From a bacterium (lineage in GTDB: Bacteria; CG2-30-53-67), in the NCBI GenBank assembly GCA_919901565.1, contig CAKKPE010000035.1, positions 6,396-70,395 on the forward strand: DNA of 64,000 bases. Reading direction: 5' to 3'. Shown here piece after piece: positions 3,027 through 31,312 of the stretch (the stretch's first letter is position 1; every line of letters begins with the position of its first letter). The translations under genes and the position numbers were made by a program. The notes under the pieces are model-generated. The model was not told the origin of the DNA and made no database searches. It saw only the letters and a program-made list of their open reading frames with translations.

Positions 3027-3092
3027 GTTTGAAACCGTTCAAACAGTTTAAACCGTTCAAACAGTTTAAACGGCTTGAACGGTTTGAACGGT
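3027..3092. repeat. 9-bp alternating-orientation tandem repeat (GTTTGAAAC/CGTTCAAAC/AGTTTAAAC...), locus A, inside the hemC-cobA/hemD intergenic spacer
   Basis: 7 units. Same family as loci B-F. Confidence 0.8.
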
Positions 3093-4646
3093 ATATCTGG
3101 AGGATCTGCTTTGAGTCGTGAAAGGCCCAAGAGCGGAAAGGTCTATCTGATCGGGGCCGGACCGGGACATCCCAAACTGATCACCCTCAGGGCCATCGAG
3201 TGCATCCAGGACTCCGATGTCATTCTCTATGACCATCTGGCCAATCAGAAATTTCTCCAGTACGCAAGAAAAGACTGCGAGATCATCTATGCCGGAAAGA
3301 CCGGCGTGCATCACACCCTGCACCAGGACGAGATCAATCAGATCCTGATCGAGAAGACCCGCCAGGGCCGCACCGTGGGCCGGCTCAAGGGCGGGGACCC
3401 GCTCCTCTTCGGCCGGGGAGGCGAAGAGGCCGAGGAACTCGCAAAACAGGGGATTGACTTCGAAATTGTGCCGGGAGTCCCTGCAGCCACGGCCGCAGCG
3501 GCCTACGCAGGGATCCCCCTGACCCATCGGGACTTCTCCTCGACCGTAGCCTTCGTAACCGGACATGAGGGATCTGAAAAAACCGGCCCGGCCGTGGATT
3601 GGGCAAAACTCAGTACCGGCGTCGGGACCCTGGTAATCTACATGGGGATCGGGAACCTCAAGGAAAACGTCCGGAAGATCATGGCCCACGGCCGCTCCCC
3701 TGAAACCCCGGTGGCCCTGATCCGCTGGGCAACCACCCCGGACCAGGAAACCCTGTGCGGAACCCTCTCCGACATCTACGAGAAGGCGCAGGCCGCTGAC
3801 TTCAGGGCCCCGGCCATCATGATCGTAGGAGAGAGCGTCACCCTGCGGGACAAGCTCCAATGGGCGGAGCGGCTCCCCCTCTTCGGAAAACGGATCGTCC
3901 TTACACGGGAGAGGGAGCAGGCCGGGGATTTCTCCGAGCATCTGGAGCGTTTCGGAGCAGAGATATTCTATCTGCCGACCATCCGGATCGTCCCGCCTGA
4001 AAGCTTTGAGATCCTGGACCGGGCCATGGATGAACTTTCGTCCTTTCATTGGGCGGTCTTCACCAGCGCCAACGCAGTCCGGGGATTCATGGACCGGCTC
4101 CTGGAGCGGGGCCGTGATGTGCGCGACCTCAAGGGGATACGGATCGTGACCGTGGGAACGGCCACGGCACAGGCCCTCCTCAAAAAGGGGATACGCGCGG
4201 ACCTGATTCCCGAAGAGTTCCGGGGCGAAGGGGTGATCCAGGCACTGAAGGCACAGGGGGATCTGCACGGCACAAAGATCCTGATCCCGAGGGCGGAAAA
4301 GGCTCGGGAAATCCTTCCCGACACCCTGAGGGATGAAGGAGCCGAGGTAGTGGTCGCCGCGGTCTACCGCAACGTCCCGCTGGAGATCGACCCCAAGGAC
4401 CTCCAGGAGATCCTGGTCACGAGAAAGGCCCATCTGATCGTATTCACCAGTCCTTCCAATGTAAACAATTTCATGAGGGCTGTGGAGAAAGAAGGGCTGA
4501 GCGGGGCTCTCCATGGGATCAAGATCGCCTGTATCGGGCCGGTGACAGGAGACGCTGCCAGAAAACGAGGATTAGAGGTGGCGCTGGAACCAGAAGCCTC
4601 CACCCTGAGGTCGCTGTCTGATTCAATCTTGCGTTTGTTTGGATAA
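3075..4646 (+). CDS. bifunctional uroporphyrinogen-III C-methyltransferase / uroporphyrinogen-III synthase (CobA/HemD fusion)
   Basis: 523 aa. The N-terminal half (VYLIGAGPGHPKLITLRA...GGDPLLFGRG) has the SUMT/CobA signature. The C-terminal ~270 aa is HemD-like. This fusion is common in sulfate reducers. Confidence 0.85.
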   Translation: MNGLNGISGGSALSRERPKSGKVYLIGAGPGHPKLITLRAIECIQDSDVILYDHLANQKFLQYARKDCEIIYAGKTGVHHTLHQDEINQILIEKTRQGRTVGRLKGGDPLLFGRGGEEAEELAKQGIDFEIVPGVPAATAAAAYAGIPLTHRDFSSTVAFVTGHEGSEKTGPAVDWAKLSTGVGTLVIYMGIGNLKENVRKIMAHGRSPETPVALIRWATTPDQETLCGTLSDIYEKAQAADFRAPAIMIVGESVTLRDKLQWAERLPLFGKRIVLTREREQAGDFSEHLERFGAEIFYLPTIRIVPPESFEILDRAMDELSSFHWAVFTSANAVRGFMDRLLERGRDVRDLKGIRIVTVGTATAQALLKKGIRADLIPEEFRGEGVIQALKAQGDLHGTKILIPRAEKAREILPDTLRDEGAEVVVAAVYRNVPLEIDPKDLQEILVTRKAHLIVFTSPSNVNNFMRAVEKEGLSGALHGIKIACIGPVTGDAARKRGLEVALEPEASTLRSLSDSILRLFG

Positions 4647-4684
4647 CCGTATAATATAACGGGGGAAAAGGAGGCATAATCATC

Positions 4685-5659
4685 ATGTTCTATCCCAGCT
4701 ACCGCCCGCGAAGGATGCGGAAAAATCCCCAGTTCCGGCGAATGGTCCGTGAAACCGCCCTCTCCGTGGATAACCTGATCTATCCCATGTTCGTGATACA
4801 CGGCAAGAATGTGCGAAAGGAGATATCCTCCATGCCAGGGAACTTCCAGCTATCCGTGGACAACCTGGTCAAGGATGCCAGGGCCGTGCATGGACTCGGC
4901 ATCCCGGCTGTCATCCTCTTCGGCATCCCCAAGACCAAGGACGAGATGGGCACTGGCGCCTATGATGACAAGGGGATCATCCAGACGGCTGTGCGGGCGC
5001 TCAAGGACAAGGTCCCGGACCTCATGGTCATCACCGACGTATGCCTCTGCGAATATACCAGCCACGGCCATTGCGGCATTGTGGAGAACGGAGAGATCCT
5101 CAATGACCCGACCCTGGAGCTTCTGGCCAGGGAAGCGGTGTCCCATGCCCGCGCAGGCGCCGATATGGTCGCTCCGTCGGACATGATGGACGGCCGGGTC
5201 GGAGCGATCCGGGACGCCCTGGATGAAGAAGGGTTGGATCAGATCCCCATCATGTCCTATGCGGTCAAGTATGCCTCGGCCTTTTACGGCCCCTTCCGCG
5301 ATGCGGCCGAATCTCCCCCTAAGTTCGGAGACCGGTCCTCCTACCAGATGGACCCGGCCAATACACGGGAGGCCATGCGCGAGGCCGAACTCGATGTGGC
5401 TGAAGGAGCGGACATCCTCATGGTCAAGCCCGCCCTTCCTTATCTGGACATCATCCACCGCGTGCGGGACGAATTCGATCTTCCGGTCGCTGCCTACAAC
5501 GTGAGCGGGGAATACTCCATGATCAAGGCCGCGGCCAGGCTCGGATGGCTCGATGAAAAGAAAGCCATGATGGAGTCGCTCACGGCCATCAAACGGGCCG
5601 GCGCGGACCTGATCCTGACCTACTGGGCCAGGGAGGCGGCGAAGCTCCTCCATGAATGA
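4685..5659 (+). CDS. hemB: porphobilinogen synthase (delta-aminolevulinic acid dehydratase)
   Basis: 324 aa. [23 protein letters not shown] start, Cys-rich metal site ([12 protein letters not shown]) and the active-site region match HemB. Confidence 0.9.
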
Positions 5660-5704
5660 AGGGCTGTAAGGTAGAAGAGTTTAACGGTTCAAAAAATCAC
5701 GTGA

Positions 5705-6532
5705 TTAGAACTGTGCCAAGGACCCTTGTTCCTTGGCACGGGACAGGGCCCTGTTGAAGAGAAACAAGCTCATGGGGATGCCGACTGCTGCATAGAGAAT
5801 GAGCACGGCAATGTCCGGGCCGAGTTTCGTAACCGGCTCCCCCAGCAGGATGGCGTGCCGCATGGCGCGAAGCGAGTAGGTCAACGGGATGAAATCCGAA
5901 CCGCGCTGCAGAAACTCCGGAAGAATCGTCACCGGATAATAGACCCCTCCGAGAAGCGCAGAAAGGGTGCCGAAGATAAAAGAGACCGGGTCTCCCCGCT
6001 TGTAAATCAGCACAAAAGCCGCGGAGAGTATCCCAAAGGATGAGAAGGCCAGTATGGTCGTCAGCAGAACCACGAATACGGAGAACAGGTTGGCCTGGCC
6101 GATCCGGAGGCCGAAGAAGACAACACCGAAAAACAGATAGACCGCCACCTCGAACGTAGCGTAAATGAAACTCCAGAGGCTGGAGTAAATCAAAAGTAAA
6201 ATCGGCCTCGTGGGCATGGTCAGCATGGTCTCCAACGTGCCGGTCATCTGGCCTTCCCGGATGGTGCTGGAGAAAATGGAGAGGGCCACGCCCATATAGC
6301 GGTAAAAAGCGATCCCGATCAGGACAAAGGGAAAATACTCTCCTCCGTAAGCTGAAAGGGAGCGGCTGGCAGACTCCCCGAAAAGGCGGGAGATATAATA
6401 AAACATCACCACGGAAAAGAAGACCCCTGCGATCTGGGATACAAACGAGAGCCGATAGCTGATTTCTCCCAGAAAATCCCGCCGGAGGAAGGCCATCGGT
6501 TTATGGACCATGGAGAGAGAGAGTACGCTCAT
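5705..6532 (-). CDS. ABC-2 type transporter permease
   Basis: 275 aa, 6-TM hydrophobic profile. Translationally coupled to the downstream ATPase (4-nt overlap). Confidence 0.7.
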   Translation of the reverse strand: MSVLSLSMVHKPMAFLRRDFLGEISYRLSFVSQIAGVFFSVVMFYYISRLFGESASRSLSAYGGEYFPFVLIGIAFYRYMGVALSIFSSTIREGQMTGTLETMLTMPTRPILLLIYSSLWSFIYATFEVAVYLFFGVVFFGLRIGQANLFSVFVVLLTTILAFSSFGILSAAFVLIYKRGDPVSFIFGTLSALLGGVYYPVTILPEFLQRGSDFIPLTYSLRAMRHAILLGEPVTKLGPDIAVLILYAAVGIPMSLFLFNRALSRAKEQGSLAQF

Positions 6533-7299
6533 CTTACCCTGCCTCCCTGCTGATGGCCCTGGAAAAGATCGTCTTCTATGCTCCCGTCGCAGACCAGCCG
6601 TCCTCGGTCGAGGATTCCGATCCGGTCGCAGAAGTTTCTTGCTTCAGCAAGTCTGTGGGTCACCATGACGATCGTCGTCTGTTTATTCAAAGCCAGGTAA
6701 CGGATCTGCTTCAATAAACTTTCGGCCATGGCCGGATCCAGACCCCGGGTCGGTTCATCCATAAGCAGGACGGCAGGCTCCCGCAGCATGGCCCGGGCCA
6801 CAAGAAGCCTCTGTTTCATCCCTGTGGAATAGGCGTCATACCGGTCGTCCAGAAAATTGTCCATGTTCATGAGCGAGGAGAGTTCCCTGGTCCTGCGGTC
6901 GATCTCCCTGATGGATAGGTTCAACAAAGATCCGAAGAAGCGCAGGTTCTCCCTGCCGCTCAGACGCCAGTAAAAGCTCCTTTCATCCGGATAAACCATG
7001 CCGACCCTCTCCTTGATCCTGTATTCGTCCCGAACCAGGTCGTACCCCAGGATGCGCACGCTCCCCCGGTCCGGCCGGATCAGGGTGGAGAGGACCTTGA
7101 GAAGCGTGGTCTTGCCCGCCCCGTTGGGGCCGAGCAGTCCGAAGACCTCTCCGGCCTGCACATGCAGGGTCACATCGTCGAGCACTTTGATATCATGAGA
7201 GATGGAGGATGAGGAGAACCACCTCCGGATTCCTGTTTGGGGCCTGAAGATCTTGGTGAGTTGTTCTATCTCGATGGCATGGGGCATCAGGGTCTTCAA
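6529..7299 (-). CDS. ABC transporter ATP-binding protein
   Basis: Walker A GPNGAGKTT, ABC signature YSTGMKQRL, Walker B LLMDEPTRGLD. Confidence 0.85.
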   Translation of the reverse strand: MKTLMPHAIEIEQLTKIFRPQTGIRRWFSSSSISHDIKVLDDVTLHVQAGEVFGLLGPNGAGKTTLLKVLSTLIRPDRGSVRILGYDLVRDEYRIKERVGMVYPDERSFYWRLSGRENLRFFGSLLNLSIREIDRRTRELSSLMNMDNFLDDRYDAYSTGMKQRLLVARAMLREPAVLLMDEPTRGLDPAMAESLLKQIRYLALNKQTTIVMVTHRLAEARNFCDRIGILDRGRLVCDGSIEDDLFQGHQQGGRVR

Positions 7300-7346
7300 T
7301 TTCTGAAAAGGTGCCGGTTAAAACAAGACTGCCGCAGACGTCCAGC

Positions 7347-8573
7347 CTACGGATTGCGGTGGTGTTTCGCTGTGGCGTGCAGGTTCCAGCCGTTTTTCTC
7401 GCCAAGGATGTCCTCCTCATAGACCGAACTGGTAATATAGATCAGCGGATTGTCCTTCAGGCTGATGGTCCTCGGGACCTTAAGCTTCTGCCCTTCTGCC
7501 TGATACAGGATCTCCACCGTAGGCCTGAGAGGACGCTCCTCGCTGGTTTCAACCACCTTGCCGATCTCGTTGGTATTCAGCTTCACAAACCCCTCCAAAG
7601 GGAAAACGGAGATCTTCCGAAGAAGCGTCTTGATCAGCTTCTGGGCGAACACACCCTTCTCCTGCTCCACAATAATCTTGATGGCATCGTAAGGAAGAAA
7701 GCGCCTTCGCTGCGGGCGGGTATGGGTGAGAGCCTCATAAAAGTCGACCAGACCGATGATCTGCGCATACTCGTGCAGGTCTTGCCCTGAAAGGCCTCTC
7801 GGATAACCCTTGCCGTTGATCCGTTCATGCTCCTGACGCACCACGGTTGCGATCCATTCATACTGACGTCCGAGACGGGTGAGCATTTCATAACTGTATT
7901 CGGGGTGACGCTTCATCTCCTCATACTCTTCCTTGGTCAGCACATCTTCCTTGTTGATGATTCCGGCGTCCAGTTTGGCCATACCGATGTCGTGCAGGAG
8001 GGCCACGGTCCCGAGGCGGATGAGTTGATTCTCGCTGTATGAGAGCCCCATCCCGACTTTCAGGGCGAAGATCGCCACATTCAAGGAATGGGAGATGAGA
8101 TCGGTGGAGGAGTGGCGGGTATAAACCGCTTTGAGATAGAGTCTGTCTCCAGCCATCAGGCTTTGAACCATCCGGGCGGTACACTCAGCAACCTCGTCCA
8201 CGGAAAAGGTTTGACCCGATTTCCCGTGGTCCATGGCGAGGCCGACCTGTTTCTTGGCATCCTCGTAGATCTTATCCACATCTCCGTAGATCCAATCCCC
8301 GTCCTCGCTTTTGCTGTCAGACTTTTCGTCCAGCATACCGGACGATTTCCTGCGCAGTTCATCCTTGGATATGAGCGTGGAGACCCCCTTATCCTCGCTG
8401 TCCTTGAGCAGTTCGTCCACGGAAAGAATCTCACTCATCTTCAGGTTTTCTTCCTTCCTGGGAGACGATGCCGTCTGCTTTCTGAAAGGGACCTGCTGCA
8501 CGGCTACGGATGGTTTTTCTTCTTCGCCTGAACTGCCTTTTGACTTGCGCAGGATTTCGGTAATTCTTGCCAT
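7347..8573 (-). CDS. HD-GYP domain phosphohydrolase (putative c-di-GMP phosphodiesterase)
   Basis: 408 aa. HD motif (LLHDIGM) and GYP-like motif (INGKGYPRGL) in the C-terminal half. N-terminal acidic/Ser-rich region. Confidence 0.75.
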   Translation of the reverse strand: MARITEILRKSKGSSGEEEKPSVAVQQVPFRKQTASSPRKEENLKMSEILSVDELLKDSEDKGVSTLISKDELRRKSSGMLDEKSDSKSEDGDWIYGDVDKIYEDAKKQVGLAMDHGKSGQTFSVDEVAECTARMVQSLMAGDRLYLKAVYTRHSSTDLISHSLNVAIFALKVGMGLSYSENQLIRLGTVALLHDIGMAKLDAGIINKEDVLTKEEYEEMKRHPEYSYEMLTRLGRQYEWIATVVRQEHERINGKGYPRGLSGQDLHEYAQIIGLVDFYEALTHTRPQRRRFLPYDAIKIIVEQEKGVFAQKLIKTLLRKISVFPLEGFVKLNTNEIGKVVETSEERPLRPTVEILYQAEGQKLKVPRTISLKDNPLIYITSSVYEEDILGEKNGWNLHATAKHHRNP

Positions 8574-8585
8574 AGGTCTGCTCCC

Positions 8586-9383
8586 TTAAAAGGAACCGTT
8601 AGCCGATTTATCCACGATCGCGGTATTGATGAACTTGACGCTCTCTCCGCAGCCGAGCAACAGGCTGAGATCACAGATATTATTGATCTTCCTTGGAATA
8701 CCAGAGCTGTGTTCATAGATCCGTCTAAAGGCGTCATTGGTAAACATATTCCGTTTGGCCCCGGCCTTCTTGAGCCTGAAGAAGATGAACTTGACCATCT
8801 CCTGAATGTCCAGGGGCCTGAGGTGGTAACGGATGGCGATCCTCTGGTCCAATTGCGGCATATTTTCGATCTTCTGCTTGAGTTCGGGCTGGCCGATCAG
8901 AACCAGCGTCAGCAGGAAACGGTCGTTCAACTGAAAATTCAGCAGGAGCCTCAGCTCCTCGAAGGTTTCACTGCTGTTGATCAGTTGTGCCTCATCCACA
9001 ATGATCACCGTGTTCTTCCCTTCCTTGAGATTCTGATAAAGGTAATCGTTCAGCTGGTGGATCATCTCGCTCTTGGATTGGGACGGGGTCTTCAGCCCGA
9101 ACTGATACATGATCTCCTTTAAGAAATCGTCAGCCGGCAGGCATGGATTCTCGATCAGGGCCAGTTGATAATTCCTCTGGCCGAGCCGCTGCACCAGGAG
9201 CCGGCTGATCGTAGTCTTGCCGCAGCCGATCTCACCGGTTAGCAAGGCCGCACCCTTCCGGTTTTCAATGGCATAGATCAGCCGTGTCAGGGCCTCTTCG
9301 TGAATGGGAGATTTATAGAGATAGGCAGGATTTGGTAGATTTTCAAATGGATATTCTGTTAAGCCCCAATAATCCTTGTACAT
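8586..9383 (-). CDS. ExeA/MshM-like AAA ATPase
   Basis: P-loop GEIGCGKTT and DEAQ Walker B. ExeA-family N-terminus MYKDYWGLTEYPF (start chosen at the internal Met rather than the 9410 ORF start). Confidence 0.65.
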   Translation of the reverse strand: MYKDYWGLTEYPFENLPNPAYLYKSPIHEEALTRLIYAIENRKGAALLTGEIGCGKTTISRLLVQRLGQRNYQLALIENPCLPADDFLKEIMYQFGLKTPSQSKSEMIHQLNDYLYQNLKEGKNTVIIVDEAQLINSSETFEELRLLLNFQLNDRFLLTLVLIGQPELKQKIENMPQLDQRIAIRYHLRPLDIQEMVKFIFFRLKKAGAKRNMFTNDAFRRIYEHSSGIPRKINNICDLSLLLGCGESVKFINTAIVDKSANGSF

Positions 9384-9649
9384 ATGCAATATTCTCCGGT
9401 TAAAAGTCAATTTTTATGATAATTGACAAACAGCATCTGGAGTCTTATTTCATAAGATCAAAATACAGGAAAATCCTTTACTATTGATATGTTAATGTGA
9501 CAAGCCGATTTTTGTCAAGATTTAATTTGCCAGGTTTTGACAGCGAGAATTTGAAGAAACCCCTCTCGATTATCCAGATTTTTTATGCAGAAGGGCAAGA
9601 ATCTCTTATTCAAAGACTCCCAGGTCAGCCCCATTCATCCCTATCCGCC

Positions 9650-10378
9650 CTACCCGAACCGTGACAGGGAGGGGAAGAGCTTCATGATCCAGATGGATAG
9701 ATAACCCAGGCGGTTCATGAAGATCATCACCCCAATGGTGATCAGCAGCATTCCGGATACCACTTCCACGGCCTTGAAATGTTTTCTGAACCGGTTGATG
9801 AGGGAGAGCGACCAGCCGGTCGCAACACCTGCAAGGATGAAGGGGATACCGAGTCCCATGGCGTAAACCAGGAGAAGGAGGATCCCGGTCTTGATACTCT
9901 CCTGGGTCCCGGCCATGGCCAGGATCCCCGCCAGAATGGGCCCGATACAGGGGGTCCAGCCGAATGCGAATACCACCCCGATGACAAAGGCCTGGAGATA
10001 GGAGATCCGTTTTGTCCTGACATGGAACCTTTTCTCATAATTCAAAAAACTAATCCTGAAAATACCCATGGTATGCAGGCCCAGGACCATCAGGGCCAGG
10101 CCCGAGATCTTCCGCATCAAACCCATATGGCCGGTAATCATATGCCCAATCAGAGTGGCCGATGCCCCGAGCAGAGTGAAGACCAGAGAGAAACCGGCCA
10201 CAAAAAACAAGGAGCTGGCGAGGACGCCGGGGAGCAGGGACGAAGGATTCTCCTCACCCGCCAGTTGTTCCACCGAAACACCTGAAATATAAGAGATGTA
10301 CGCCGGGACCAGAGGCAGGACACAGGGTGAGATAAAAGAAAGCAGACCGCCCAAAAATGCAAACAGAAACTGATCCAT
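9650..10378 (-). CDS. ccdA: cytochrome c-type biogenesis protein CcdA (DsbD-like thiol-disulfide transporter)
   Basis: 242 aa, 6 TM helices. Conserved Cys in TM1 (SPCVLPLVPAY) and a second Cys (GWTPCIGP) are the CcdA hallmarks. Confidence 0.8.
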   Translation of the reverse strand: MDQFLFAFLGGLLSFISPCVLPLVPAYISYISGVSVEQLAGEENPSSLLPGVLASSLFFVAGFSLVFTLLGASATLIGHMITGHMGLMRKISGLALMVLGLHTMGIFRISFLNYEKRFHVRTKRISYLQAFVIGVVFAFGWTPCIGPILAGILAMAGTQESIKTGILLLLVYAMGLGIPFILAGVATGWSLSLINRFRKHFKAVEVVSGMLLITIGVMIFMNRLGYLSIWIMKLFPSLSRFG

Positions 10379-10384
10379 ATAGAT

Positions 10385-10548
10385 TTACCTTTGAATTTCA
10401 AAATTCTAAGTTCTAAATCCTAAACAATTTCAAATGACCAAAATTCTAAACAGTACGATTCATGCATTTAAATGTTTTGGACATTTGGATTTTGAATTTT
10501 GAATTTGTTTAGAATTTCGACATTAGGATTTAGAATTTATATATGATC
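10385..10548. repeat. AT-rich low-complexity region with imperfect dyad symmetry (TTCTAAA/TTTAGAA, AATTCAAA words in both orientations)
   Basis: Occupies the whole intergenic region between the 10556 gene stop and the ccdA start. Confidence 0.4.
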
Positions 10549-10555
10549 CTCGGCT

Positions 10556-11293: not shown

Positions 11294-11414
11294 ATATAAC
11301 CTCTTGACTGCAAGGGCCGCCACAGCTGTCATCCCGGACCTGACCCGAAACAAAATCCTTGTATCATCGTAGCACAAAACCACGGGATGTCAAACCCGAG
11401 GTTCCGGATACGGA

Positions 11415-13958: not shown

Positions 13959-14387
13959 AAAAACCTCCTTCTATAAAAATGTTTTGCACCAAGTCTCTGA
14001 CTATTATTAATCAGTGAGTTCTCATTTCTATTGTAATAGTGGTTTTTGGATGGCAAAGGTCGCGAAAAAAGTTTGTTTTTCGGGGGTTTTTATCGATATA
14101 AACTGAAAATTAGCTCTTAAGTTTAATAAATGCGGGGTTAAGCCTCTAACTCACCCCTGTCAAAAACCGAACATCTCTTGTTTTAAGACTGTTTATCAGC
14201 CATATCTGTTTGAATCTTGTTTCCATGTTTACCGCCCCACCCTATCCCGCTAAAAAATATAAAAGTTGGTAAATCAATGCGTTACTGATTAGAATGGAAC
14301 AATGGAAAGGTTTGACAAGACCATTCACACATTCTATGCTAAGGACAGAAAATTACTTGAAAAACAAGGTTTTGTTCAAACATGATG

Positions 14388-14541
14388 GACTCGTAAAAAA
14401 GTCCTCAAATGAGGCGGCAAAGTAAAAAGCTCCAGATGCAAGGCGCGCAAGTCCTGAGGAATGAGGCGTACTTACAGCTACGCCGCAATGACGAAGGACG
14501 CAGCGCAACGACGCAGATGGACTTTTTACGAAGCCGTCAAA
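14388..14541. mobile_element. MITE-like element copy 1 (~150 bp, 11-bp terminal inverted repeats GTAAAAAGTCC / GGACTTTTTAC)
   Basis: About 85% identical to 56734-56880. Terminal inverted repeats are present, plus an internal hairpin conserved through compensatory changes. Ends 1 bp before the ATG of the CBS-DHH-PAP gene. Confidence 0.5.
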
Positions 14542-14542
14542 C

Positions 14543-17167: not shown

Positions 17168-17507
17168 TATAGAGATTAAAGATAAAGAATCAAAAATCAA
17201 AATGACAGATTAAAAATCAGAAATGAATTCTGTAGAATTATTCATAATCGGATACTTCGGCGTCTTTATCGGTTGGAAACTCATGTCCTGAATCCAAGGC
17301 AGGCTTTCCAAAAGAGGCTGCGCTATTTTTATATTTTGATTTGTCATTTTGATTTTTTATCTTTGATCTTTGATTCTTAAGGGTTTGCAAGAGATGCTTC
17401 GATTCCCAATTTCTGCGTGGTTCAACTTGTCCCGGCGTATGATAAAGGATGCACCACAAAATCAGATTGCACCTGTTTTGCAATATTGTTATAGTACCTG
17501 ACCAGGT

Positions 17508-19021: not shown

Positions 19022-19024
19022 TTC

Positions 19025-19128
19025 GGTTCAAAGGGTTAAAAGAGTTCAAAGGGTTCAAACGGTTTAAACGGTTCAAACGGTTCAAACGGTTTGAACGATT
19101 TAAACGGTTTGAACGATTTGAACGATTT
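19025..19128. repeat. 9-bp tandem repeat array (GGTTCAAAC units switching to GGTTTGAAC/GATTTGAAC midway), locus B
   Basis: About 11 consecutive 9-10-bp units fill the whole rsmI-DUF362 intergenic region. Unit orientation flips in the middle, giving the array overall dyad symmetry. Confidence 0.85.
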
Positions 19129-19148
19129 TTTAACACAAGGAGTTCATC

Positions 19149-20273: not shown

Positions 20274-20295
20274 TTCCATAAAACCAAATGTTTTA

Positions 20296-20335
20296 TCTTG
20301 AACCCTTTGAGCTATTTGAACCTTTTGAACCAAAG
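20296..20335. repeat. short tandem repeat (TTTGAACC-type units), locus C
   Basis: 4-5 units: cttgaaccc tttgagcta tttgaacct tttgaacca. Same family as loci A, B, D, E and F. Confidence 0.7.
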
Positions 20336-20359
20336 GTTTACACAACTAAATAGAAATAC

Positions 20360-20387
20360 TTGACAAAACCTATTAAAACGTTATAGA
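20360..20387 (+). promoter_or_regulatory. putative sigma70 promoter (TTGACA-16 nt-TATAGA) for the REC-DHp gene
   Basis: cTTGACAaaacctattaaaacgtTATAGAagt sits ~60 bp upstream of the ATG at 20446. Confidence 0.3.
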
Positions 20388-23675: not shown

Positions 23676-23682
23676 GGGGGAT

Positions 23683-23934: not shown

Positions 23935-23940
23935 TGAGTT

Positions 23941-24648
23941 TCACCAAACTGGAACCTGATTTTCCATGATGGCCTGCCTGAGTCGTTCAGTGAAACCATT
24001 ACGGCTGTCTTCATGCGTCCCCTGTACCCGCATGGGCCTGCCGATGACCAGATGGATGGTCCCGGGATTGACCCGAAAGTTTCTCTTGGACATGATTTCA
24101 AAACTCCCGGATATACTGATCGGAACGACCGGCGCCCTCGAGGCCTCTGCCAGATGGAAACACCCCTTCTTGAAAGGAAGAAGCCTGCCGTCGATGGAAC
24201 GGGTCCCTTCGGGAAAGATGATGATCGACTGCCCTTCCCGTATCTTCCTGGCTGCAGCCTGCAGGCCTTCCCGGGCATTTTCTTTATTCGACCGGTCGAT
24301 CCGGATATTTCCGAAACGCTTCATGGCATACCCGAAGATAGGGATCCGGAAGAGCTCTTTCTTGGTAATCCACCCGAACCGGATGGGGACATAGGCGAAA
24401 AGGGCAAAGATATCAAAGAACCCCTGGTGATTGGATGCAAGGATCAAGGGAGATCCCAAAGTGAGGTTTTCCAAACCCTGCACATCTACTTTTATCCCGG
24501 CTGCGGCCAGGATGCCCCGCGCCCAGATTCTTGCAAAGAGATGGATCATCCTCCCGGTCGGGTCCACAAAAGAGAAAAGGATCACAAGGACCCCGCAGAC
24601 CACCGTAAGGAATACCCCTGCCGACCAGACCCACAATGAACGAATCAT
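23941..24648 (-). CDS. plsC: 1-acyl-sn-glycerol-3-phosphate acyltransferase (lysophospholipid acyltransferase)
   Basis: HxxxxD motif (NHQGFFD) and FPEGTRS motif. Confidence 0.8.
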   Translation of the reverse strand: MIRSLWVWSAGVFLTVVCGVLVILFSFVDPTGRMIHLFARIWARGILAAAGIKVDVQGLENLTLGSPLILASNHQGFFDIFALFAYVPIRFGWITKKELFRIPIFGYAMKRFGNIRIDRSNKENAREGLQAAARKIREGQSIIIFPEGTRSIDGRLLPFKKGCFHLAEASRAPVVPISISGSFEIMSKRNFRVNPGTIHLVIGRPMRVQGTHEDSRNGFTERLRQAIMENQVPVW

Positions 24649-24784
24649 TTCTTTTCTCTCCCATATTCCCTATTATAGGATTATAAAAAAGTTTACGGAC
24701 GATTACAAGGGTGAAAACGACAGGAACGGGAGATTGACTTTGTATTGGACCTTACGTTAAAGTGATAGATACAAGGATAAAACC

Positions 24785-26470
24785 ATGCAGACGCACAAAA
24801 AACAGAGGCCCAAAAAAGAAAAAACCCTGCACGTCATCCGCGACTCCATCCAGAAGAAGAGAAAGGAATGGAAGGGGATAGACCGGGGGAACGGCTTCAT
24901 CATCATCCAGATCGATGGTCTCCCCCACCAGATCCTGATCAAGGCCCTTTCAGAAGGATACATGCCATTCATGAAGAACACCCTGGCCTCCGGACGGTTC
25001 AGGCTCAGCCGGTATCACTGCGGCATCCCCGGGAGCACCCCTTCTGCCCAAAGCGGCATCATGTACGGAGATAACGAGGAGATCCCGGGATTCCGGTGGC
25101 TGAACAAGGAAAACGATATCCTGGTCAGTTTCAAGAACCCCATGTCGGCCTCCATGATCGAATCCGGGATCGCATCAAAAAGAAGAGGCATCCTGAAGAA
25201 CGGGAGCAGTTATGTGAACCTCCTCTCCGGCGGCGCCGCCCGTTCGGTCTTCACCCTGAGCACGTTTCTGACCCAGGACATGCAAAAGAGGTTATCGGGA
25301 CTCGCCATCTTCAGTCTCTTTTTCCTGAACATTGCCCCGGTGCTCCGCATGATCGTCTCCACCATAGTCGAGCTGGTCCACGAATTACTGGAATATCTTG
25401 AAGTCAGCCTGAAAGGGGAAATTCAAAAGAGCGAGGGGTTCTTCCCCGTTGTGCGGATATTCTCAAACGTTCTTTTTTATGAGGTGGCAACCGTGGGAAC
25501 GGTCATCGACATCAGCCAGGGCCGGCCCTCCATATACCTCACCTACAACGGATATGACGAGGCCGCTCACCAGCGCGGGCCCGAGACCAAGTACGCCCTC
25601 AAATCCCTCAAGGTCATAGACCGCGGGATCAAAAGGGTCGTCAGGCAGGCCATCAAAAAAAAGAAGGGGATGCGCTACGACATCTATATCCTATCGGATC
25701 ACGGCCAACACCCATCCATTCCTTTCAGCTATCAGTACGGTGAAAGCCTGGAGAGCTTCATCCGTTCCAAGGTCAAGGAGGGGCGTATCATCAAGTACGA
25801 TGCCGGAGGCGGGCAAGTGAAAGACTACCTCATGACGGCGTTCTCATCCACACTGCGGGGCTTCTCGGACCAGAACCTCTTTTTCATGCGCAGGGTCTTC
25901 AAGCAGATTGCAAGCTACATCGACAAGCATATCGGGCTGGAAGAGAAGCAGAAGAAGACCCTGGAGAACATCTCGATCGTGAATTCAAGCACCATGTCCA
26001 ATCTCTATTTCAACGTCTCCAAGAACAGGCTGGACATCGAAGAGATCGAACGGATCTATCCCGGACTGGTCGGCGCCCTGGTCCGGCATGACGGCGTCGG
26101 ACTGGTGGCAGGAAGGTCCAACGGAGACGTGGTGCTCCTTTCGCGCAAAGGGAGGGTCTTTTTCAGGAATGGCGCTAAAGAGGTCGATGGACAAGACCCT
26201 CTTGAAGACTTTCATGATTCGGACGCCATCGAGAAGGAGGTCTACCACCAGTTCGGCATGACTCATGCCGGGGACCTGGTCCTCTACGGGGCCATGAAGG
26301 ATGACCATGTCATCAATTTTGAGGAGCAGATGGGCGGCCACGGCGGTATCGGCGGGATGCAGAACACCCCCTTTATCCTCTACCCGGAAAAGATCCATTT
26401 TTCATTCAGCGAGGTGAAAAACTCCAGGGAACTCTACCCGGTCTTCTCAGGCTACCAGGGCCCGGAGTAG
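24785..26470 (+). CDS. alkaline phosphatase superfamily protein (nucleotide pyrophosphatase/phosphodiesterase-like)
   Basis: 561 aa. N-terminal metal-site region (IIQIDGLPHQ...GIPGSTPSAQSG) and C-terminal His-rich region (ILSDHGQH, GGHGG). Confidence 0.7.
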   Translation: MQTHKKQRPKKEKTLHVIRDSIQKKRKEWKGIDRGNGFIIIQIDGLPHQILIKALSEGYMPFMKNTLASGRFRLSRYHCGIPGSTPSAQSGIMYGDNEEIPGFRWLNKENDILVSFKNPMSASMIESGIASKRRGILKNGSSYVNLLSGGAARSVFTLSTFLTQDMQKRLSGLAIFSLFFLNIAPVLRMIVSTIVELVHELLEYLEVSLKGEIQKSEGFFPVVRIFSNVLFYEVATVGTVIDISQGRPSIYLTYNGYDEAAHQRGPETKYALKSLKVIDRGIKRVVRQAIKKKKGMRYDIYILSDHGQHPSIPFSYQYGESLESFIRSKVKEGRIIKYDAGGGQVKDYLMTAFSSTLRGFSDQNLFFMRRVFKQIASYIDKHIGLEEKQKKTLENISIVNSSTMSNLYFNVSKNRLDIEEIERIYPGLVGALVRHDGVGLVAGRSNGDVVLLSRKGRVFFRNGAKEVDGQDPLEDFHDSDAIEKEVYHQFGMTHAGDLVLYGAMKDDHVINFEEQMGGHGGIGGMQNTPFILYPEKIHFSFSEVKNSRELYPVFSGYQGPE

Positions 26471-26518
26471 GTAAACTGATCTATTGCCATTCCTCTTAGG
26501 ATGTGATATTTTTTAATT

Positions 26519-27646
26519 ATGATCACACAGGAAATCAAGCTGGAGGGGAACCTTTCCGAGATATCGGTCCCGCAGGTCTTCCATGCCCTCTCTATCTCCA
26601 ATGCCACAGGTATCTTCACCTGGAAGCACAGCACACAGGAAAGAATGGTTTACATCGCCCAGGGGAAGATCGTCTTCGCCATTTCAAACGACAAAGAAGA
26701 GCGGCTCGGAGAGGCCCTGCTGCGTTCAGGGAAGATCCGGGTCAAGGACTTCATCGAAGGCTCCAGACAGATCAGTGAGAAGAAAAGGCTGGGGCAGATC
26801 CTCATCGAGATAGGGGCCCTGAGCAAGGAGGAGATCAAGAACGGCGTCACCGATCAGGTCCGGGAGATCATCTTCAACCTGTTCAAGGAATCACAAGGGA
26901 GCTACACCTTCAATGAGAAAAAGGAACTCCCCAGGGAGATCATCACCCTCAACATCAATACCGGGGAGCTGATCCTGAGGGGAGTCCAGAAGATCATGGA
27001 ATGGAACCGGATCTTCCAGACCATCTCCGGGATCGATACCGTGTTTGAGCCCGCCTCCGGCGCCCAGAAGAAACTCCAGGAGGTCTCTCTCACCCCGGAG
27101 GAGAAGAAAATATTCGAACAGGTCAACGGGAAAAATCCGGTTGAAAAGATCTGCAGCCTCGTCGGCGGAAATGATTTTGAAACATGCCGGACCCTCATGG
27201 CCTTCCTGTGCGCCAACCTGATCCGCAGGATCACGGATTCCGAGATCAGCATAGCCGAAGAAAAGAAGGCCGCTGACTTCTTCGATAAAACCACCCGATG
27301 CTACAACCGGCTCTACTCATATATCTACCGGTATCTCGTGGAGAAAGTCGGCCGCATGGGCGACAAGAACCTCTGTTACTACCTCGAGGAGGTCAAAGAG
27401 GATCATCCGGTGATCATGAAAGGGATTTTTCTCCTGCCCGACGGCACCCTTGCGGCCGAGGTTCTCAAGGAGAACTTTGAAAGGGTCTCAGCGGACAGGA
27501 AGAAAGAGGCGCTCCTGGCCGGGCTCAAGGCCCTGCTTTCCTCTGAACTGGCCGCTATACAGGAATCCCTGGGCGAAACCGAAAAGGCCTTTGTATCAAG
27601 CCGCCTGGCAGGGATCATCGAAGGGATGAAGAAGGAAAAACCCTGA
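26519..27646 (+). CDS. DUF4388 domain-containing protein
   Basis: N-terminal DUF4388/PATAN-like segment (PQVFHALSISNATGIFTWKHSTQERMVYIAQGKIVFA). Confidence 0.65.
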   Translation: MITQEIKLEGNLSEISVPQVFHALSISNATGIFTWKHSTQERMVYIAQGKIVFAISNDKEERLGEALLRSGKIRVKDFIEGSRQISEKKRLGQILIEIGALSKEEIKNGVTDQVREIIFNLFKESQGSYTFNEKKELPREIITLNINTGELILRGVQKIMEWNRIFQTISGIDTVFEPASGAQKKLQEVSLTPEEKKIFEQVNGKNPVEKICSLVGGNDFETCRTLMAFLCANLIRRITDSEISIAEEKKAADFFDKTTRCYNRLYSYIYRYLVEKVGRMGDKNLCYYLEEVKEDHPVIMKGIFLLPDGTLAAEVLKENFERVSADRKKEALLAGLKALLSSELAAIQESLGETEKAFVSSRLAGIIEGMKKEKP

Positions 27647-27734
27647 CAGACGGCCCTCACAAAAGGCCCTCATCAGGCGGTCCGGCTCTCCGCCGCCTTC
27701 CCCATGGAAACAGATGTTCATCCATGAGGTATAT

Positions 27735-27800
27735 TGGGTTCAAGAGTTCAAGGGTTCAAGGGTTCAAGGGTTCAAGGGTTCAAGGGTTCAAGGGTTCAAG
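27735..27800. repeat. perfect 9-bp tandem repeat (GGGTTCAAG)x7, locus D
   Basis: Seven near-identical head-to-tail copies lie directly downstream of the DUF4388 gene. Confidence 0.9.
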
Positions 27801-28011
27801 GATCGTGTCACGTCTAAAATGACGTATCCCATTTCCCCCCTCACCTCAATCCTCCCCAAGGGGAGAGGAAGTTCAAACATCCCTTCTCCCCACAGGGGAG
27901 AAGGTTAGGATGAGGGGGCGGCACCAAAAGACACAACAAGGTTGACACGACACCAGAGAGTGATGCCCCGAACTCACAGGAACTCCTCACCGGCATGGTA
28001 TGTTTTACAAA

Positions 28012-29058
28012 TCAGAACAGCGTCGGGTGATCCTCGTCTTTGTCTGACGGAGATGAAGGCGCTTCGAGCCCGCCGGGCTCCGCATCGTCTCTCCCGGCCC
28101 CCTGCCCGTCTTCCGTCGCAAAACCCTTGAAGACAAACTGCCCCAGACGCTTATGATACGCACTCCACCGTTCATCCCCCTGAGAACCCTCCATCATCCC
28201 GCGGAAGGCCTGCGTCTTGGCATCCAGGTCATCCATCATATTCAGGATCAGGGCCTCCAGGATCATGGGCTTCACAGGAGACCCGAACTCCTCTTTGCCG
28301 TGATGGGAGAGTAGCAGGTGCTTGAGAAGGATCGCCTTCTCGTCCGGGAATCCGGGTATGGCGCGGATGCATTCCGAGACCTGTTCCAGTTCCAATGCGA
28401 TATGGCCGATAAGGCGCCCCCGGTCCGTGTATCCCAAGTTCCTGGAATACTCAAGCTCATCCACCTTTCCGATATCGTGCAGGAGCACCCCGGCAAACAG
28501 CAGGTCCCGGTCCACCTCCGGGAAACGGGGCGCCACATCCTCACAGAGACGGAACACGGAGAGGGTATGCTCCAGAAGGCCGCCCAGATAGGCATGGTGC
28601 ATGGCCTTGGCCGCAGGGGCCGTGGAAAATTTCTCCTTGAACGCGGGGGCCTGGAAGATCATCAAAAGAAGTTTCGCGAGGTGCGGGTCCTTGACCTTGC
28701 GGATGCAGGCCGAGAGTTCGGCCGCCATTTCATCGGCCCCCCTTTTGGAGGAGGGGAGGAAATCCCTGGGATTGATGTCGGCCCCCTCCACCCGTTTGAC
28801 CGACTGGAGGGTCAGTTGAAGCTTCCCGTTGTATTCGTTCACCTGCCCCGCTGCCTTCACAAAATCACCCGTGGAGCATTCCTTAGAGGCCTTCTCCGCC
28901 CCCTCCCAGACCTTGGCCTCCATCTCTCCGGACCGGTCTCCCAGCTTCAGGGTCAAAAACGTTTTCCCCGCCCGGGTCGTCCCGATACTCTTGCTCCGGA
29001 CAAGATAGATCCCCTCCACAGCCTTCCCTTCCCGCATCTCGGAAATCAGGATTCCCAT
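28012..29058 (-). CDS. OB-fold + HD domain protein (YhaM-like 3'-5' exoribonuclease family)
   Basis: 348 aa. N-terminal OB-fold segment, central HD motif (HHAYLGGLLEHT...LLHDIGK) and a C-terminal acidic tail. Confidence 0.6.
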   Translation of the reverse strand: MGILISEMREGKAVEGIYLVRSKSIGTTRAGKTFLTLKLGDRSGEMEAKVWEGAEKASKECSTGDFVKAAGQVNEYNGKLQLTLQSVKRVEGADINPRDFLPSSKRGADEMAAELSACIRKVKDPHLAKLLLMIFQAPAFKEKFSTAPAAKAMHHAYLGGLLEHTLSVFRLCEDVAPRFPEVDRDLLFAGVLLHDIGKVDELEYSRNLGYTDRGRLIGHIALELEQVSECIRAIPGFPDEKAILLKHLLLSHHGKEEFGSPVKPMILEALILNMMDDLDAKTQAFRGMMEGSQGDERWSAYHKRLGQFVFKGFATEDGQGAGRDDAEPGGLEAPSSPSDKDEDHPTLF

Positions 29059-29405
29059 GAAATAGTCCCTCCTAAAAAACCATTCAAACCATTTTGTTTT
29101 TTCGTACTATACCTTTTTCATGCCGCAAGATCAACCCCGTTAGAAGCCCCCATATTTCCACCAGAATCCGCCAACAAAATCTGTGAACCACAGAGCACAC
29201 AGATGATTTTCTCTGCGTTCTCAAAACGATTGATAAAATAAGGCAAACTTAATCTTTCAGAAAAGAGTGCACAGAGATGAGGAACTTGTTTAATGTTTTA
29301 TCTCTATTATCCATCAGTTATTCTGTGCCCTCTGTGGTTTGATGGTGAATTTGGGTTCCACTTTTCCCCTTGACACCGTTTCCTCTTTGTTATTAGATTA
29401 CCTGC

Positions 29406-30434
29406 ATGGAGGATTCTCTCGTGAACGCAGGCCAGATCGAAAGACAATGGGGGATTATCAACACCCTCTGCCGGCGAAGCAGAACCACCCTTGATGAACT
29501 GGCCGAAGAATATGAAGTCTCCAAACGGACCATCCTGCGTGACTTGGACAAACTCAGCCTGATCTTTCCTCTCGTAGACAAGAAAGAAGGGAGACACAAA
29601 TACTGGTCCCTGATCGACGGCTACAAGGACGTCCCCCCCATCACCTTCCTTCCCACCGAGTTTTACGCCATCCAGGAAGGCACACGATTTCTCAAGGCCC
29701 TGGGCGATCCCTTTCTCAGGCCCACCTTAGAGTCTATCAGCCACAAAATCAGGGCCACCTTTGATCAGAGCAGGATCGAATCCTTCGAGAACCTCCGAAA
29801 AATCTTTTCAATCAACCTGAGCGCGGCTAAAGACTACTCCGGCAAGAGAGGTTTTTTGAGTCAGATCTTTTCGGCCGCAGCCGAACAGCGCCGTGTGGAG
29901 ATCGGCTACCAGGGCCTCAAAGATACTAAACCTCTGGTCAGAAAAGTTGACCCCTACAAACTCTGGTACCGGGACGGCACAGTCTATCTTGTGGGGCTAT
30001 GTCATCTGAGAAACAAGATCCGCATGTTCGCCGTGGACAGGATCACCCTCTTGAACCTTACGGATGATAACTTCCTGACCCCTGAAAACTTCGACTTCAA
30101 CGAATATATTGAACACGCCTTCAGCGTCATGATCGAAGACCCCATTCACGTCAAGGTAAGATTCAACCCCGAAATTGCCCGCTACATCGAAGAGCGTGAG
30201 TGGCATCCGAGCCAGAAGATAAAGAAATACAAGGACGGCTCGCTCCTCATGGAACTGACCGTGGGCGGGACATTGGAGATCAAACGGTGGATCTTAAGCT
30301 TCGGCTCCCAGGCCGAGGTCATCGAACCGGAAGCGCTCGTTGAGGAACTCCGGGCAGATCTGGAGAGAATGAGGCAGGTCTATAGTTTGGACAGTTCAAA
30401 CCGTTCAAGCAGTTTAAACCGGTCAAGTAGTTGA
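29406..30434 (+). CDS. WYL domain-containing transcriptional regulator (HTH + WYL)
   Basis: N-terminal HTH (TTLDELAEEYEVSKRTILRDLDKL) and WYL motif (KLWYRDGTVYLVGLCHLRNKIRMFAVDRI). The last ~17 codons are encoded by the tandem-repeat array E, so the native C-terminus is uncertain. Confidence 0.8.
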   Translation: MEDSLVNAGQIERQWGIINTLCRRSRTTLDELAEEYEVSKRTILRDLDKLSLIFPLVDKKEGRHKYWSLIDGYKDVPPITFLPTEFYAIQEGTRFLKALGDPFLRPTLESISHKIRATFDQSRIESFENLRKIFSINLSAAKDYSGKRGFLSQIFSAAAEQRRVEIGYQGLKDTKPLVRKVDPYKLWYRDGTVYLVGLCHLRNKIRMFAVDRITLLNLTDDNFLTPENFDFNEYIEHAFSVMIEDPIHVKVRFNPEIARYIEEREWHPSQKIKKYKDGSLLMELTVGGTLEIKRWILSFGSQAEVIEPEALVEELRADLERMRQVYSLDSSNRSSSLNRSSS

Positions 30435-30600
30435 AACGCCTGAACTCTTAAACAGCTTAAACCCTTTGAACGGTTTGAATCAAAGGTTTTGAACTTGAAC
30501 TGTTTAAACAATTTGAACCACTTGAACTTTTTGAACCAAATGTTTTTTTTTGAACGGTCCATTCTCTTTGAACGACTTGAACCCTTTGAACCAGAGGTTC
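30386..30600. repeat. degenerate 9-10-bp tandem repeat array (GTTCAAAC/GTTTGAAC/GTTTAAAC units), locus E
   Basis: About 20 units with the unit orientation alternating. Overlaps the WYL 3' end and runs up to the four-helix-bundle gene start. Confidence 0.8.
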
Positions 30601-30605
30601 TTAAA

Positions 30606-31067
30606 ATGACTGTCAAGTACTTCGAAGATCTCGAAATCTGGCAACGAGCGAGAGATCTGACAAACAAAATCTACCGACTCACCAGCAACGGCAAATTCGC
30701 CAAGGACTACGGCCTTCGAGACCAGATCCGGCGGGCAGCGGTTTCCGTCATGTCCAACATCGCCGAAGGCTATGAGCGGGGAGGCAACCAAGAGCTGATC
30801 CAGTTTCTCTCCATTGCCAAAGGCTCCTGCGGAGAAGTGAGATGCCAACTGCATATAGCCGGTGACCAAGGCTATGCGGAAACAAAAGAAACCGCTCACC
30901 TCATCGATTCATTCAAAAAGCTCTCCGTCATGATCCACAATTTTATGGACTATATCAAAAAAAGCCCCTACAAAGGCGCCAAGTACAAACAGCCGAAACA
31001 AAAAAGCATGAAAGAAAAACTCGATGAGATCCTAAAAGACCATGGAATGGATAATAACAAGGTTTGA
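30606..31067 (+). CDS. four helix bundle protein (TIGR02436 family; '23S rRNA intervening sequence protein')
   Basis: [22 protein letters not shown]...[41 protein letters not shown] matches the family consensus. Flanked on both sides by tandem-repeat arrays. Confidence 0.85.
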
Positions 31068-31312
31068 ACCATTTGATCTTTTTGATCTTTTTGAACCCCT
31101 TGAACTATTTGAACTTTTTGACCCCTTTGAACAAAATATTTTATCTTGAACGATTTGAACTTATTGAACAAAATCTCTTATCTTGAACCCTTTGAACCAA
31201 AAGGTTTTATCTTGAACCCTTTGAACTATTTGAACTTTTTGACCTCTTTGAACCAAATGTTTTATCTTGAACGGTTTGATCTTATTGAACAAAATGTCTT
31301 AACCTTGAACAT
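31068..31312. repeat. tandem repeat array (TTGAAC-core units) with a ~105-bp higher-order duplication, locus F
   Basis: Units such as ctttgaacc / atttgaact / cttgaacg. The segment ~31075-31195 is repeated at ~31205-31310. Confidence 0.8.

Follow-up and report, generated by a model that had tools for sequence, protein, structure and literature searches.

The stretch analysed here, called the window throughout, comprises 64,000 nucleotides from a bacterium of the GTDB lineage CG2-30-53-67 (GenBank assembly GCA_919901565.1, contig CAKKPE010000035.1, positions 6,396 to 70,395), and it contains six arrays of short tandem units built on the hexamer TTGAAC or its reverse complement GTTCAA. One pair of these arrays encloses a gene for a four-helix-bundle protein of the family otherwise known from the intervening sequences (IVSs) of 23S rRNA. 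We favour, with modest confidence, the explanation that the arrays represent the tandem-repeat arms of a gene cassette of the intervening-sequence type, along with offshoots of such arms that carry no gene. The case is built on the anatomy of the cassette, the association of arrays with this gene family in other genomes, the complementarity of the arms, the comparison of sites with and without the cassette downstream of a WYL regulator gene, the dispersed copies of array blocks in the window and the fast turnover of the arrays.

The cassette occupies positions 30385-31312, with all of its parts on the + strand, and lies between the WYL regulator gene and a gene of the PRiA4_ORF3 family. It begins with a left terminal arm of GTTCAA-type units (30385-30436), which overlaps the WYL gene and takes the place of its native 3' end, and continues with an internal upstream array of about ten TTGAAC-type units (30457-30600) that runs up to the ribosome-binding site of the cargo gene (30606-31067). 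The cargo protein (153 aa) belongs to the 23S rRNA intervening-sequence protein family (S23p/Avd-like): it matches PF05635, reaches 120 bits against TIGR02436, for which the cut-off is 24, and matches PDB 2gsc (E = 2e-16), the structure of the pentameric Xanthomonas protein XCC0516. Behind the gene, array 6 (31063-31312) consists of about 17 TTGAAC-type units and holds the right terminal arm (31229-31290). In the predicted fold of 30380-31325 the two terminal arms pair with each other over 43 bp (-39.8 kcal/mol), in the minimum-energy as well as the centroid structure, and the fold of the whole cassette has a z-score of -3.2; array 6 folded alone is unstructured (z = -0.5). Inside the arms, extra TTGAAC units have piled up as direct repeats on both sides of the gene, 30466-30558 matching 31183-31275 in the same orientation at 81%. 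According to Rfam there is no rRNA anywhere in the window, and the cassette does not lie within a 23S rRNA gene.

Several of these features had been pointed out in a sequence-only reading of the window that preceded the present analysis. It had recognised that arrays stand on both sides of the four-helix-bundle gene and that an array supplies the end of the WYL open reading frame (ORF), for which we count the last 16 codons (ending in ...SLDSSNRSSSLNRSSS before the stop) where about 17 had been proposed. The higher-order duplication that it described in array 6 is also present, with a period of 121 bp (31091-31188 matches 31212-31310 at 91%) instead of the suggested size of about 105 bp. The adjacency of the arrays to the four-helix-bundle gene, which it took as incidental, is in our analysis the main clue.

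The association holds far beyond the window. In a sample of 80 metagenome loci encoding relatives of the window's four-helix-bundle protein (43-72% identity), the share of sequence taken up by tandem repeats is 30% in the 100 bp before the ORF and 31% in the 100 bp behind it, compared with 1.6% beyond 500 bp. An array lies upstream in 60 of 72 loci, downstream in 58 of 74 and on both sides in 44 of 66, and the periods around the gene are 7 (61 arrays), 9 (32) and 8 (12). On the same contigs, a 7-9-bp array occupies 82 of the 100 intergenic gaps that adjoin the gene and 14 of the 72 other gaps (odds ratio 19, p = 1e-16). The arms are frequently inverted with respect to each other, at least five inverted 7-mers being shared in 47 of 65 cassettes against 13% of mismatched pairs; k-mer counts were used for this comparison because RNAduplex, applied to whole flanks, gave inflated and weakly discriminating energies. 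Near-perfect inverted arms of 32-33 nt are present in L145, L155, L164 and L192. In the typical layout the stop codon of a host gene is followed by an arm of 32-33 nt (about 4.6 heptamers), a ribosome-binding site and the ORF, after which the upstream arm recurs as its exact reverse complement and the next host gene begins. An arm typically has 4-5 units; for heptamer arms the median length is 32 nt, with 34 of 73 in the 30-34-nt bin. The unit itself differs between cassettes (AGTCCAA, GGTTTGT, GTTTCGG, ATGAGTA, GTTCAAGG, GTTTGAACG and others), and it is around the closest homologues of the protein in the window that 9-mers of the TTGAAC type are seen.

Of the genes next to the cassette gene, 82-87% run in the same direction as it does, at a distance of about 80 nt; it is therefore packed in operon-like contexts that leave scant space for a separate promoter. 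In an annotated Flavobacterium columnare genome such a gene is separated from its neighbours by gaps of 35 and 33 nt (PMC5524665), which fits the arm length, the gaps being known from the annotation and not from the sequence. Of the gene-less arrays on contigs that bear a cassette, 37% have units in common with the local arms, compared with 11% for non-cognate arms; their lengths are broad, and the 32-nt mode of the arms was not found among them. Two loci also carry pairs of inverted heptamer arrays around about 400 nt (L172, 1464-2140) and about 1.7 kb (L181, 4398-6228) with no four-helix-bundle match, and these pairs may be cassettes of the same design with other cargo.

Related loci provide the site with and without the insertion. 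In L326, which encodes a WYL protein 79% identical to that of the window, the WYL stop codon abuts TGGACATGATCTGTCC, and cas3 follows. In the window, about 930 nt of array, gene and array stand between the WYL gene and the palindromic motif TTGACATAATCTGTCC (31321-31336, + strand), a putative WYL operator or promoter element that forms the right-hand edge of the insertion, and the native WYL C-terminus has been swapped for array-coded residues. The TGGACATGATCTGTCC palindrome is conserved downstream of WYL and upstream of cas or defence genes in three relatives (window 31321-31336; L326 around 4411-4426; L328 around 5705-5720) and is likely the WYL operator. L328 has an orthologous cassette gene (74% identical) with the same 9-mer arms, including a TTTATCTTGAAC sub-motif, elsewhere in the locus: there the TGGACATGATCTGTCC motif precedes a HIRAN gene and the cassette gene comes after both, between WYL and cas3. 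L328 and L120, the latter with a DUF362 protein 80% identical to that of the window, come from the same sample and therefore probably represent one organism. No array is present in the L120 spacers that correspond to those of arrays 2 and 3 in the window, and if the two contigs belong to one genome, the cassette is older than these gene-less arrays in the lineage. The opposite end of a cassette's life may be visible in L148, in which the arms are kept around a gene cut to residues 1-68 (the gene of L135 is intact), and decay of this type is a plausible route from a cassette to a gene-less dyad.

The array family as a whole was delimited with Tandem Repeats Finder (TRF) and motif scans over the full window. 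TRF places arrays 1 to 6 at 3027-3092, 19024-19128, 20298-20332, 27736-27801, 30392-30592 and 31063-31310, with periods of 8-9 and 3.9-11.7 copies, in each case at or within 1-5 bp of the positions reported by the sequence-only reading. The spaced motif TTGAACNNNTTGAAC, with at most one mismatch, matches the window 44 times, 41 of them inside the six arrays, against 0.41 expected from shuffles (maximum 2), and 50 of the 89 TTGAAC/GTTCAA hexamers of the window fall within the six array clusters. The arrays are a real family confined to intergenic DNA, as had been proposed, and the orientation switch attributed to several of them is seen midway in arrays 1 and 2 and at the start of array 5; arrays 3, 4 and 6 run one way. 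The potential for dyads and hairpins that had been ascribed to such switching is borne out for some of the arrays, namely 1 and 2. Array 4, described earlier as seven copies of the 9-bp unit GGGTTCAAG at 27735-27800, proved to have an 8-bp unit, GGTTCAAG. Two heptamer dyads absent from the earlier list, one of TTCTAAA/TTTAGAA units at about 10395-10540 (TRF rows 10397-10539) and one of AATCAAA/TTTGATT units around about 100 nt at about 17170-17380 (TRF rows 17188-17375), belong to the same element class with other units; the first is gene-less, and both, like arrays 1 and 2, are given without strand.

Other identities for the arrays were tried and set aside. DNA curvature does not suit a period that varies over 7, 8 and 9 bp, and oriented motifs of the Chi or KOPS type are dispersed singletons, not arrays. 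A resemblance to the tRNA T-arm (GGTTCRA) and to DNA-uptake sequences was considered and dropped, and a CRISPR array would require identical repeats of about 25-40 nt with unique spacers of comparable size in place of 8-9-nt units with 2-3 variable bases. Rfam found no known RNA family on the arrays, with nothing beyond chance microRNA-like matches on the hairpins.

Array 1 lies in the spacer from hemC to cobA/hemD and is a gene-less dyad in which 9-bp GTTCAA-type units are followed by TTGAAC-type units (7.2 copies by TRF). Its predicted RNA hairpin has an energy of -27.8 kcal/mol (z = -5.4), and the array is 85% identical to part of array 5. Array 2, in the rsmI-DUF362 spacer, is likewise a gene-less dyad, with seven GTTCAA-type and five TTGAAC-type units (11.7 copies by TRF), a predicted hairpin of -45.7 kcal/mol (z = -8.8) and a run of U after it. 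The sequence-only reading held that the arrays replace entire spacers; this is largely correct for array 2 (105 of 127 nt) and incorrect for array 1 (66 of 140 nt). Both arrays sit within apparent operons, just ahead of ribosome-binding sites. Array 3 is a one-directional TTGAAC block (20282-20338, + strand) just upstream of a conserved promoter; it is a copy of 31195-31242 in array 6, at 92% identity. Array 4 (27736-27801, + strand) is a one-directional run of (GGTTCAAG)x8 (TRF period 8, 8.2 copies, 96% matches) without structure of its own (z = -0.2). It lies between convergent genes, at the point where synteny with relatives ends (about 27652) and a CRISPR-Cas and defence island begins.

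These arrays turn over fast between close relatives. A relative with a hemC protein at 82% identity, represented by eight contigs (L330-L337) from several groundwater sites, lacks array 1 in this spacer. In its place (3434-3661) these contigs carry a different insert, about 170 nt long and with inverted repeats inside it, and the hemC-cobA spacer has thus been struck independently by two kinds of element. The sequence TATAT stands on both sides of array 1 (3020-3026 and 3093-3097), as a target-site duplication or by coincidence, and no other array shows such a duplication. An orthologue of array 2 is found in L123/L124 (DUF362 protein 88% identical), at the same position and with the same dyad, with 5+4 units where the window has 7+5, so that the copy-number change anticipated earlier has taken place over evolutionary time; every unit of the orthologous pair keeps the hexamer core, and the 3-nt spacers differ. 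In relatives with DUF362 proteins at 74-80% identity, array 2 is missing and the spacers measure 22-79 bp. Array 3 is missing even in the 88% relative. Three independent assemblies from the same Hainich groundwater population (L001-3, L115-119) gave no length differences and are 100% identical where their contigs cover the arrays. Several of these contigs end in arrays, with breaks at 3084, 19085 and 27800, and the comparison carries no weight on length polymorphism.

Array 3 also bears on the proposal that the arrays are promoter-associated elements, either upstream or -35-like sequences or, as suggested earlier, slippage-prone promoter spacers, which tune the genes downstream. TTGAAC does resemble a -35 hexamer, arrays 3 and 6 stop just upstream of TTGACA motifs, and within array 6 a pattern scan finds several weak sites that resemble promoters. 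The promoter behind array 3 (TTGACA 20360-20365, TATAGA 20382-20387; TTGACA-N16/17-TATAnA) is, however, kept complete in all relatives compared, including four that lack the array; array 3 stands upstream of its -35 element, not between the promoter elements, which weakens the spacer idea in particular. Moreover, arrays 1 and 2 have the intra-operon positions described above, array 4 separates convergent genes, and arrays elsewhere mostly follow stop codons. We regard a promoter role as very improbable.

The claim that the repeats are specific to this genome is contradicted by their distribution. A scan of one genome per species for exact (GGTTCAAG)x4 gave at least 111 loci, which, among the matches listed, represent roughly 15 phyla (Desulfobacterota, Nitrospirota, Acidobacteriota, Bacteroidota, Verrucomicrobiota, Planctomycetota, Gemmatimonadota, Zixibacteria, Ignavibacteria, WOR-3, a cyanobacterium and others) and include several genomes with 5-8 loci each; in addition, arrays belonging to the same 9-mer family flank the closest four-helix-bundle homologues in unrelated metagenomes. 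The (GGTTCAAG)x4 arrays contain degenerate units (GGTTCAGG, GGTTCAAAG, GGTTCGAG and the 7-mer GTTCAAG) and lie most often right behind stop codons or else ahead of start codons, in contexts that vary from convergent genes to operons and the interior of ORFs. An orientation switch that gives a hairpin occurs in about 10% (seven opposite-orientation pairs among 147 arrays in the loci listed). The four-helix-bundle gene directly abuts the array in L078, L086 and L087, and two of these loci, L078 and L087 from Bacteroidota, have arrays on either side of it. The idea that the gene always accompanies GGTTCAAG arrays was rejected, the link running the other way: most of the genes have arrays and most of the arrays have no gene. 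About 80 further arrays with periods of 7-9, among them members of the published TAACTGA and GGGNATC/GGGGATT families, occur in the same 770 kb of sequence.

In other uncultured bacteria exactly four GGTTCAAG units (about 33 nt, coding for the peptide GSRVQGFKGSRVQ) are inserted in frame within TsaD, LeuRS, a LolD-like ATPase and other conserved genes (L056 3219-3250; L085 2080-2111; L100 4454-4485; L103 961-992; L096 3748-3779; L011 6956-6987), and in TsaD a second heptamer array of about 35 nt follows directly. Such inserts suggest that preformed arrays can be inserted and are not only grown in place. Viral contigs gave one match for the 8-mer array and at least 119 for the spaced 9-bp pattern, the latter with no four-helix-bundle gene nearby; these resemble codon repeats read in frame within genes (runs of GGTGTTCAA, for example).

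One alternative is that all of these arrays are plain long-unit microsatellites (long simple sequence repeats, LSSRs), which arise and lengthen in place in a slippage-prone genome, have no function and stand beside the gene by accident. The TTGAAC arrays do conform to the definition of an LSSR, a head-to-tail unit of 1-11 nt in a run longer than chance, and the drift of copy number and 3-nt spacers between orthologous arrays, the lack of arrays 1 and 3 in the nearest relatives, the broad lengths of gene-less arrays elsewhere and the many other 7-9-bp families at the same loci (TAACTGA and GGGNATC included) are what slippage would produce, as is the fact that 19% of ordinary gaps in cassette-bearing contigs hold arrays. 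This explanation nevertheless leaves unaccounted for the 19-fold enrichment beside PF05635 genes, the matched inverted arms with their 32-nt length mode, the dispersed blocks of 48-93 nt at 81-92% identity and the in-frame four-unit inserts in conserved genes without a seed repeat, and we consider it rather unlikely.

Equally unlikely, in our estimate, is a second alternative, according to which the arrays are binding sites for a cooperative nucleic-acid-binding protein, either the encoded pentamer or a regulator of the ribbon-helix-helix type, and serve regulation or packaging instead of forming RNA stems. It would agree with the orthologous pair of array 2, where the hexamer core is kept as the 3-nt spacers drift, with quasi-palindromic units (GTTYRAAC) arranged both directly and inverted as in known heptad operators, with arms of typically 4-5 units and with arm motifs that co-vary with the protein clade. 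S23p/Avd homologues, moreover, are pentameric rings, and Avd binds RNA (PMC4990558, in part). The binder is, however, purely hypothetical, the co-variation is no stronger than co-inheritance predicts, the arm length of about 32 nt is better conserved than the number of units across periods 7, 8 and 9, and the arrays occupy contexts of every kind (convergent genes, operons, ORFs), unlike operators. The comparison with ribbon-helix-helix operators (MetJ metboxes, omega heptads, ParG sites) extends to tandem 7-9-bp quasi-palindromic units in direct and inverted order, MetJ reading 8-bp metboxes and the omega repressor heptads; it ends at the arrays of the window, which are not limited to promoters and for which a cognate regulator is hypothetical.

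The interpretation as cassette arms and their offshoots has to face a number of observations that weigh against it. In the window and in the flanks of the closest homologues the repeats are mainly direct (41 direct vs 12 inverted shared 7-mers), and the left arm has a competing local hairpin of -30 kcal/mol. The comparison with L326 uses orthologues that are only 79% identical, and the difference may reflect a deletion in the other lineage. Arm likeness tracks protein likeness, as simple co-inheritance also gives, and is no proof of functional coupling. Among arm mismatches, changes compatible with G.U pairing on the sense strand show no excess (92 vs 88), and the mismatches therefore give no strand-specific evidence that an RNA stem is under selection. 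About 90% of the (GGTTCAAG)x4 arrays are one-directional and form no hairpin on their own, and the four-helix-bundle gene lies within the 8-kb block at only 6 of the 111 loci among the matches listed. With most arrays lacking a nearby gene and running in one direction, a cassette origin is not claimed for every array.

Among the sources consulted, the one element with a gene of this family that has been studied by experiment is the IVS in the 23S rRNA of Coxiella. In it, an S23p ORF stands behind three to four tandem heptamers (GACAGAT), the count depending on the strain, and RNase III removes the IVS from the rRNA precursor, the 5' cut falling at the first repeat (PMC4990558). For the window, we infer the following model of cutting by RNase III, of any gain or cost to adjacent genes and of how spreading takes place at the level of DNA. 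The cassette consists of an S23p-family four-helix-bundle gene between arrays of 7-9-nt units, and its outer ends, which are reverse complements, can close into a long RNA stem. By analogy, this stem, like the hairpins that arrays 1 and 2 form by themselves, would offer RNase III the kind of double-stranded RNA that it cuts, within operon transcripts. If the stem is cut as in Coxiella, the cassette could sit within host operons with little damage, the paired arms or hairpins insulating or releasing the cassette RNA, and gene-less hairpins in mRNA could act as processing, termination or stabilising elements. Replication slippage would make the arrays grow, shrink and alter their units, as the copy differences of array 2 and the broad lengths of gene-less arrays suggest, and blocks of arrays would be copied to new intergenic sites.

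Measured against the S23p-bearing IVSs of Coxiella burnetii, Leptospira and others, which are inserted in helix 9, 25 or 45 of 23S rRNA, the cassette has the same cargo family (PF05635/TIGR02436), complementary arms that enclose the ORF in a long stem (the 43 bp of the window, and the inverted arms of most related cassettes), short tandem repeats beside the ORF, as in Coxiella, and a sporadic, selfish-looking distribution. It differs in lying between protein-coding genes and not in rRNA, in its units of 8-9 nt with a TTGAAC core, in arrays that are expanded and largely direct and in its many gene-less copies, and its processing by RNase III would be analogous at most. With the gene family and the stem present and the rRNA location absent, the cassette would work like an IVS element without being a strict member of that class. 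The arrays also share with LSSRs (Mrazek 2007), the cyanobacterial short tandemly repeated repetitive sequences (STRRs) and the TAACTGA (PMC4679880) and GGGNATC (PMC4692102) families their intergenic tandem units of 7-9 nt, about four units per array near start or stop codons and the presence of the same unit in distant phyla without a known vector; unlike those families, they form matched inverted arms around one gene family. The available portions of PMC4679880 and PMC4692102 contain no mention of a bracketed gene. The literature search returned no match for the unit GGTTCAAG / GTTTGAACN and no description of S23p-family genes outside rRNA with matched tandem-repeat arms.

A further likeness is to the REPIN/RAYT system, in which one gene is flanked by an inverted short repeat, gene-less singlets and hairpin doublets occur in the same genome and the scattered copies match the unit type of the gene's flanks. 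The cargo gene here, however, matches PF05635/TIGR02436 only and does not encode an IS200/IS605-type HUH (tyrosine) transposase like RAYT, and the repeats are tandem 7-9-nt units, not single palindromes of 20-40 nt as in REP and REPIN. To our knowledge, four-helix-bundle proteins have no catalytic activity, and mobilisation by the encoded protein is pure conjecture. On a bolder reading, which we think doubtful, four-helix-bundle cassettes would be widespread and so far undescribed selfish elements, whose pentameric protein recognises, maintains or spreads its own arms of about 32 nt; they would be the source of many STRR and LSSR families, and the 23S IVS would be a special case that landed in rRNA. 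It is just as speculative that the protein would then be analogous to RAYT with its REPINs, or to a ring protein that reads repeated RNA units. Such elements, if real, would explain many of the heptamer-to-nonamer families of Bacteroidota, Cyanobacteria, Acidobacteriota, Desulfobacterota, Nitrospirota and others.

The cassette of the window belongs to a variable island (28012-48878) that is not found in syntenic relatives and encodes a YhaM-like HD nuclease, the WYL regulator, PRiA4_ORF3, ORF6N, a Schlafen/AlbA_2 ATPase, Bro-N, YhcG and the type I-C proteins Cas5d, Csd1, Cas7, Cas3 and Cas4. Its CRISPR (28 repeats, 46976-48878) is the only region matched by the Rfam CRISPR models. In a survey from 2023, '23S rRNA IVP' appears among the genes associated with CRISPR (PMC10910872). 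As neighbours of arrays 4 and 6, the island also contains GC-rich hairpin elements (GGGGAGAAGG...GTGAGGGGG) with the look of miniature inverted-repeat elements, at 27836-27925, 31370-31544, 32864-32913 and 34867-34969, of which 31443-31544 matches 34867-34969 at 94%; the hairpin at 27800-27925 has a predicted energy of -59.9 kcal/mol (z = -5.1). Elsewhere in the window, a 159-nt direct repeat (14383-14541 / 56723-56880, 85.5% identity) is unrelated to the TTGAAC arrays, and a c-di-GMP-I riboswitch is found at 60481-60629 (48.3 bits, gathering score 35). Three relatives have a metallo-beta-lactamase-fold gene (Pfam Anti-Pycsar_Apyc1 / Lactamase_B; L120 16269-17048, L122 15766-16539, L125 15738-16517) between the acyltransferase and phosphodiesterase genes, where the window has none (about 24650-24785).

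In practical terms, the arrays break short-read assemblies, yield spurious ORFs as well as false C-termini, of which that of the WYL protein described here is an example, and are inserted in frame in the housekeeping genes of some genomes. Intergenic bacterial repeats with units of 7-9 nt have been catalogued since about 1990 (STRRs, LSSRs, TAACTGA, GGGNATC), and their origin, as well as the recurrence of identical units in distant phyla, is unexplained; the origin and purpose of the rRNA IVSs and their S23p proteins are puzzles too. The cassette data may link these two old problems, those of the intergenic microsatellites and of the rRNA intervening sequences, as most of the genes of the family that were examined stand between matched arms of tandem repeats, and arrays with the same units but no gene are scattered nearby.

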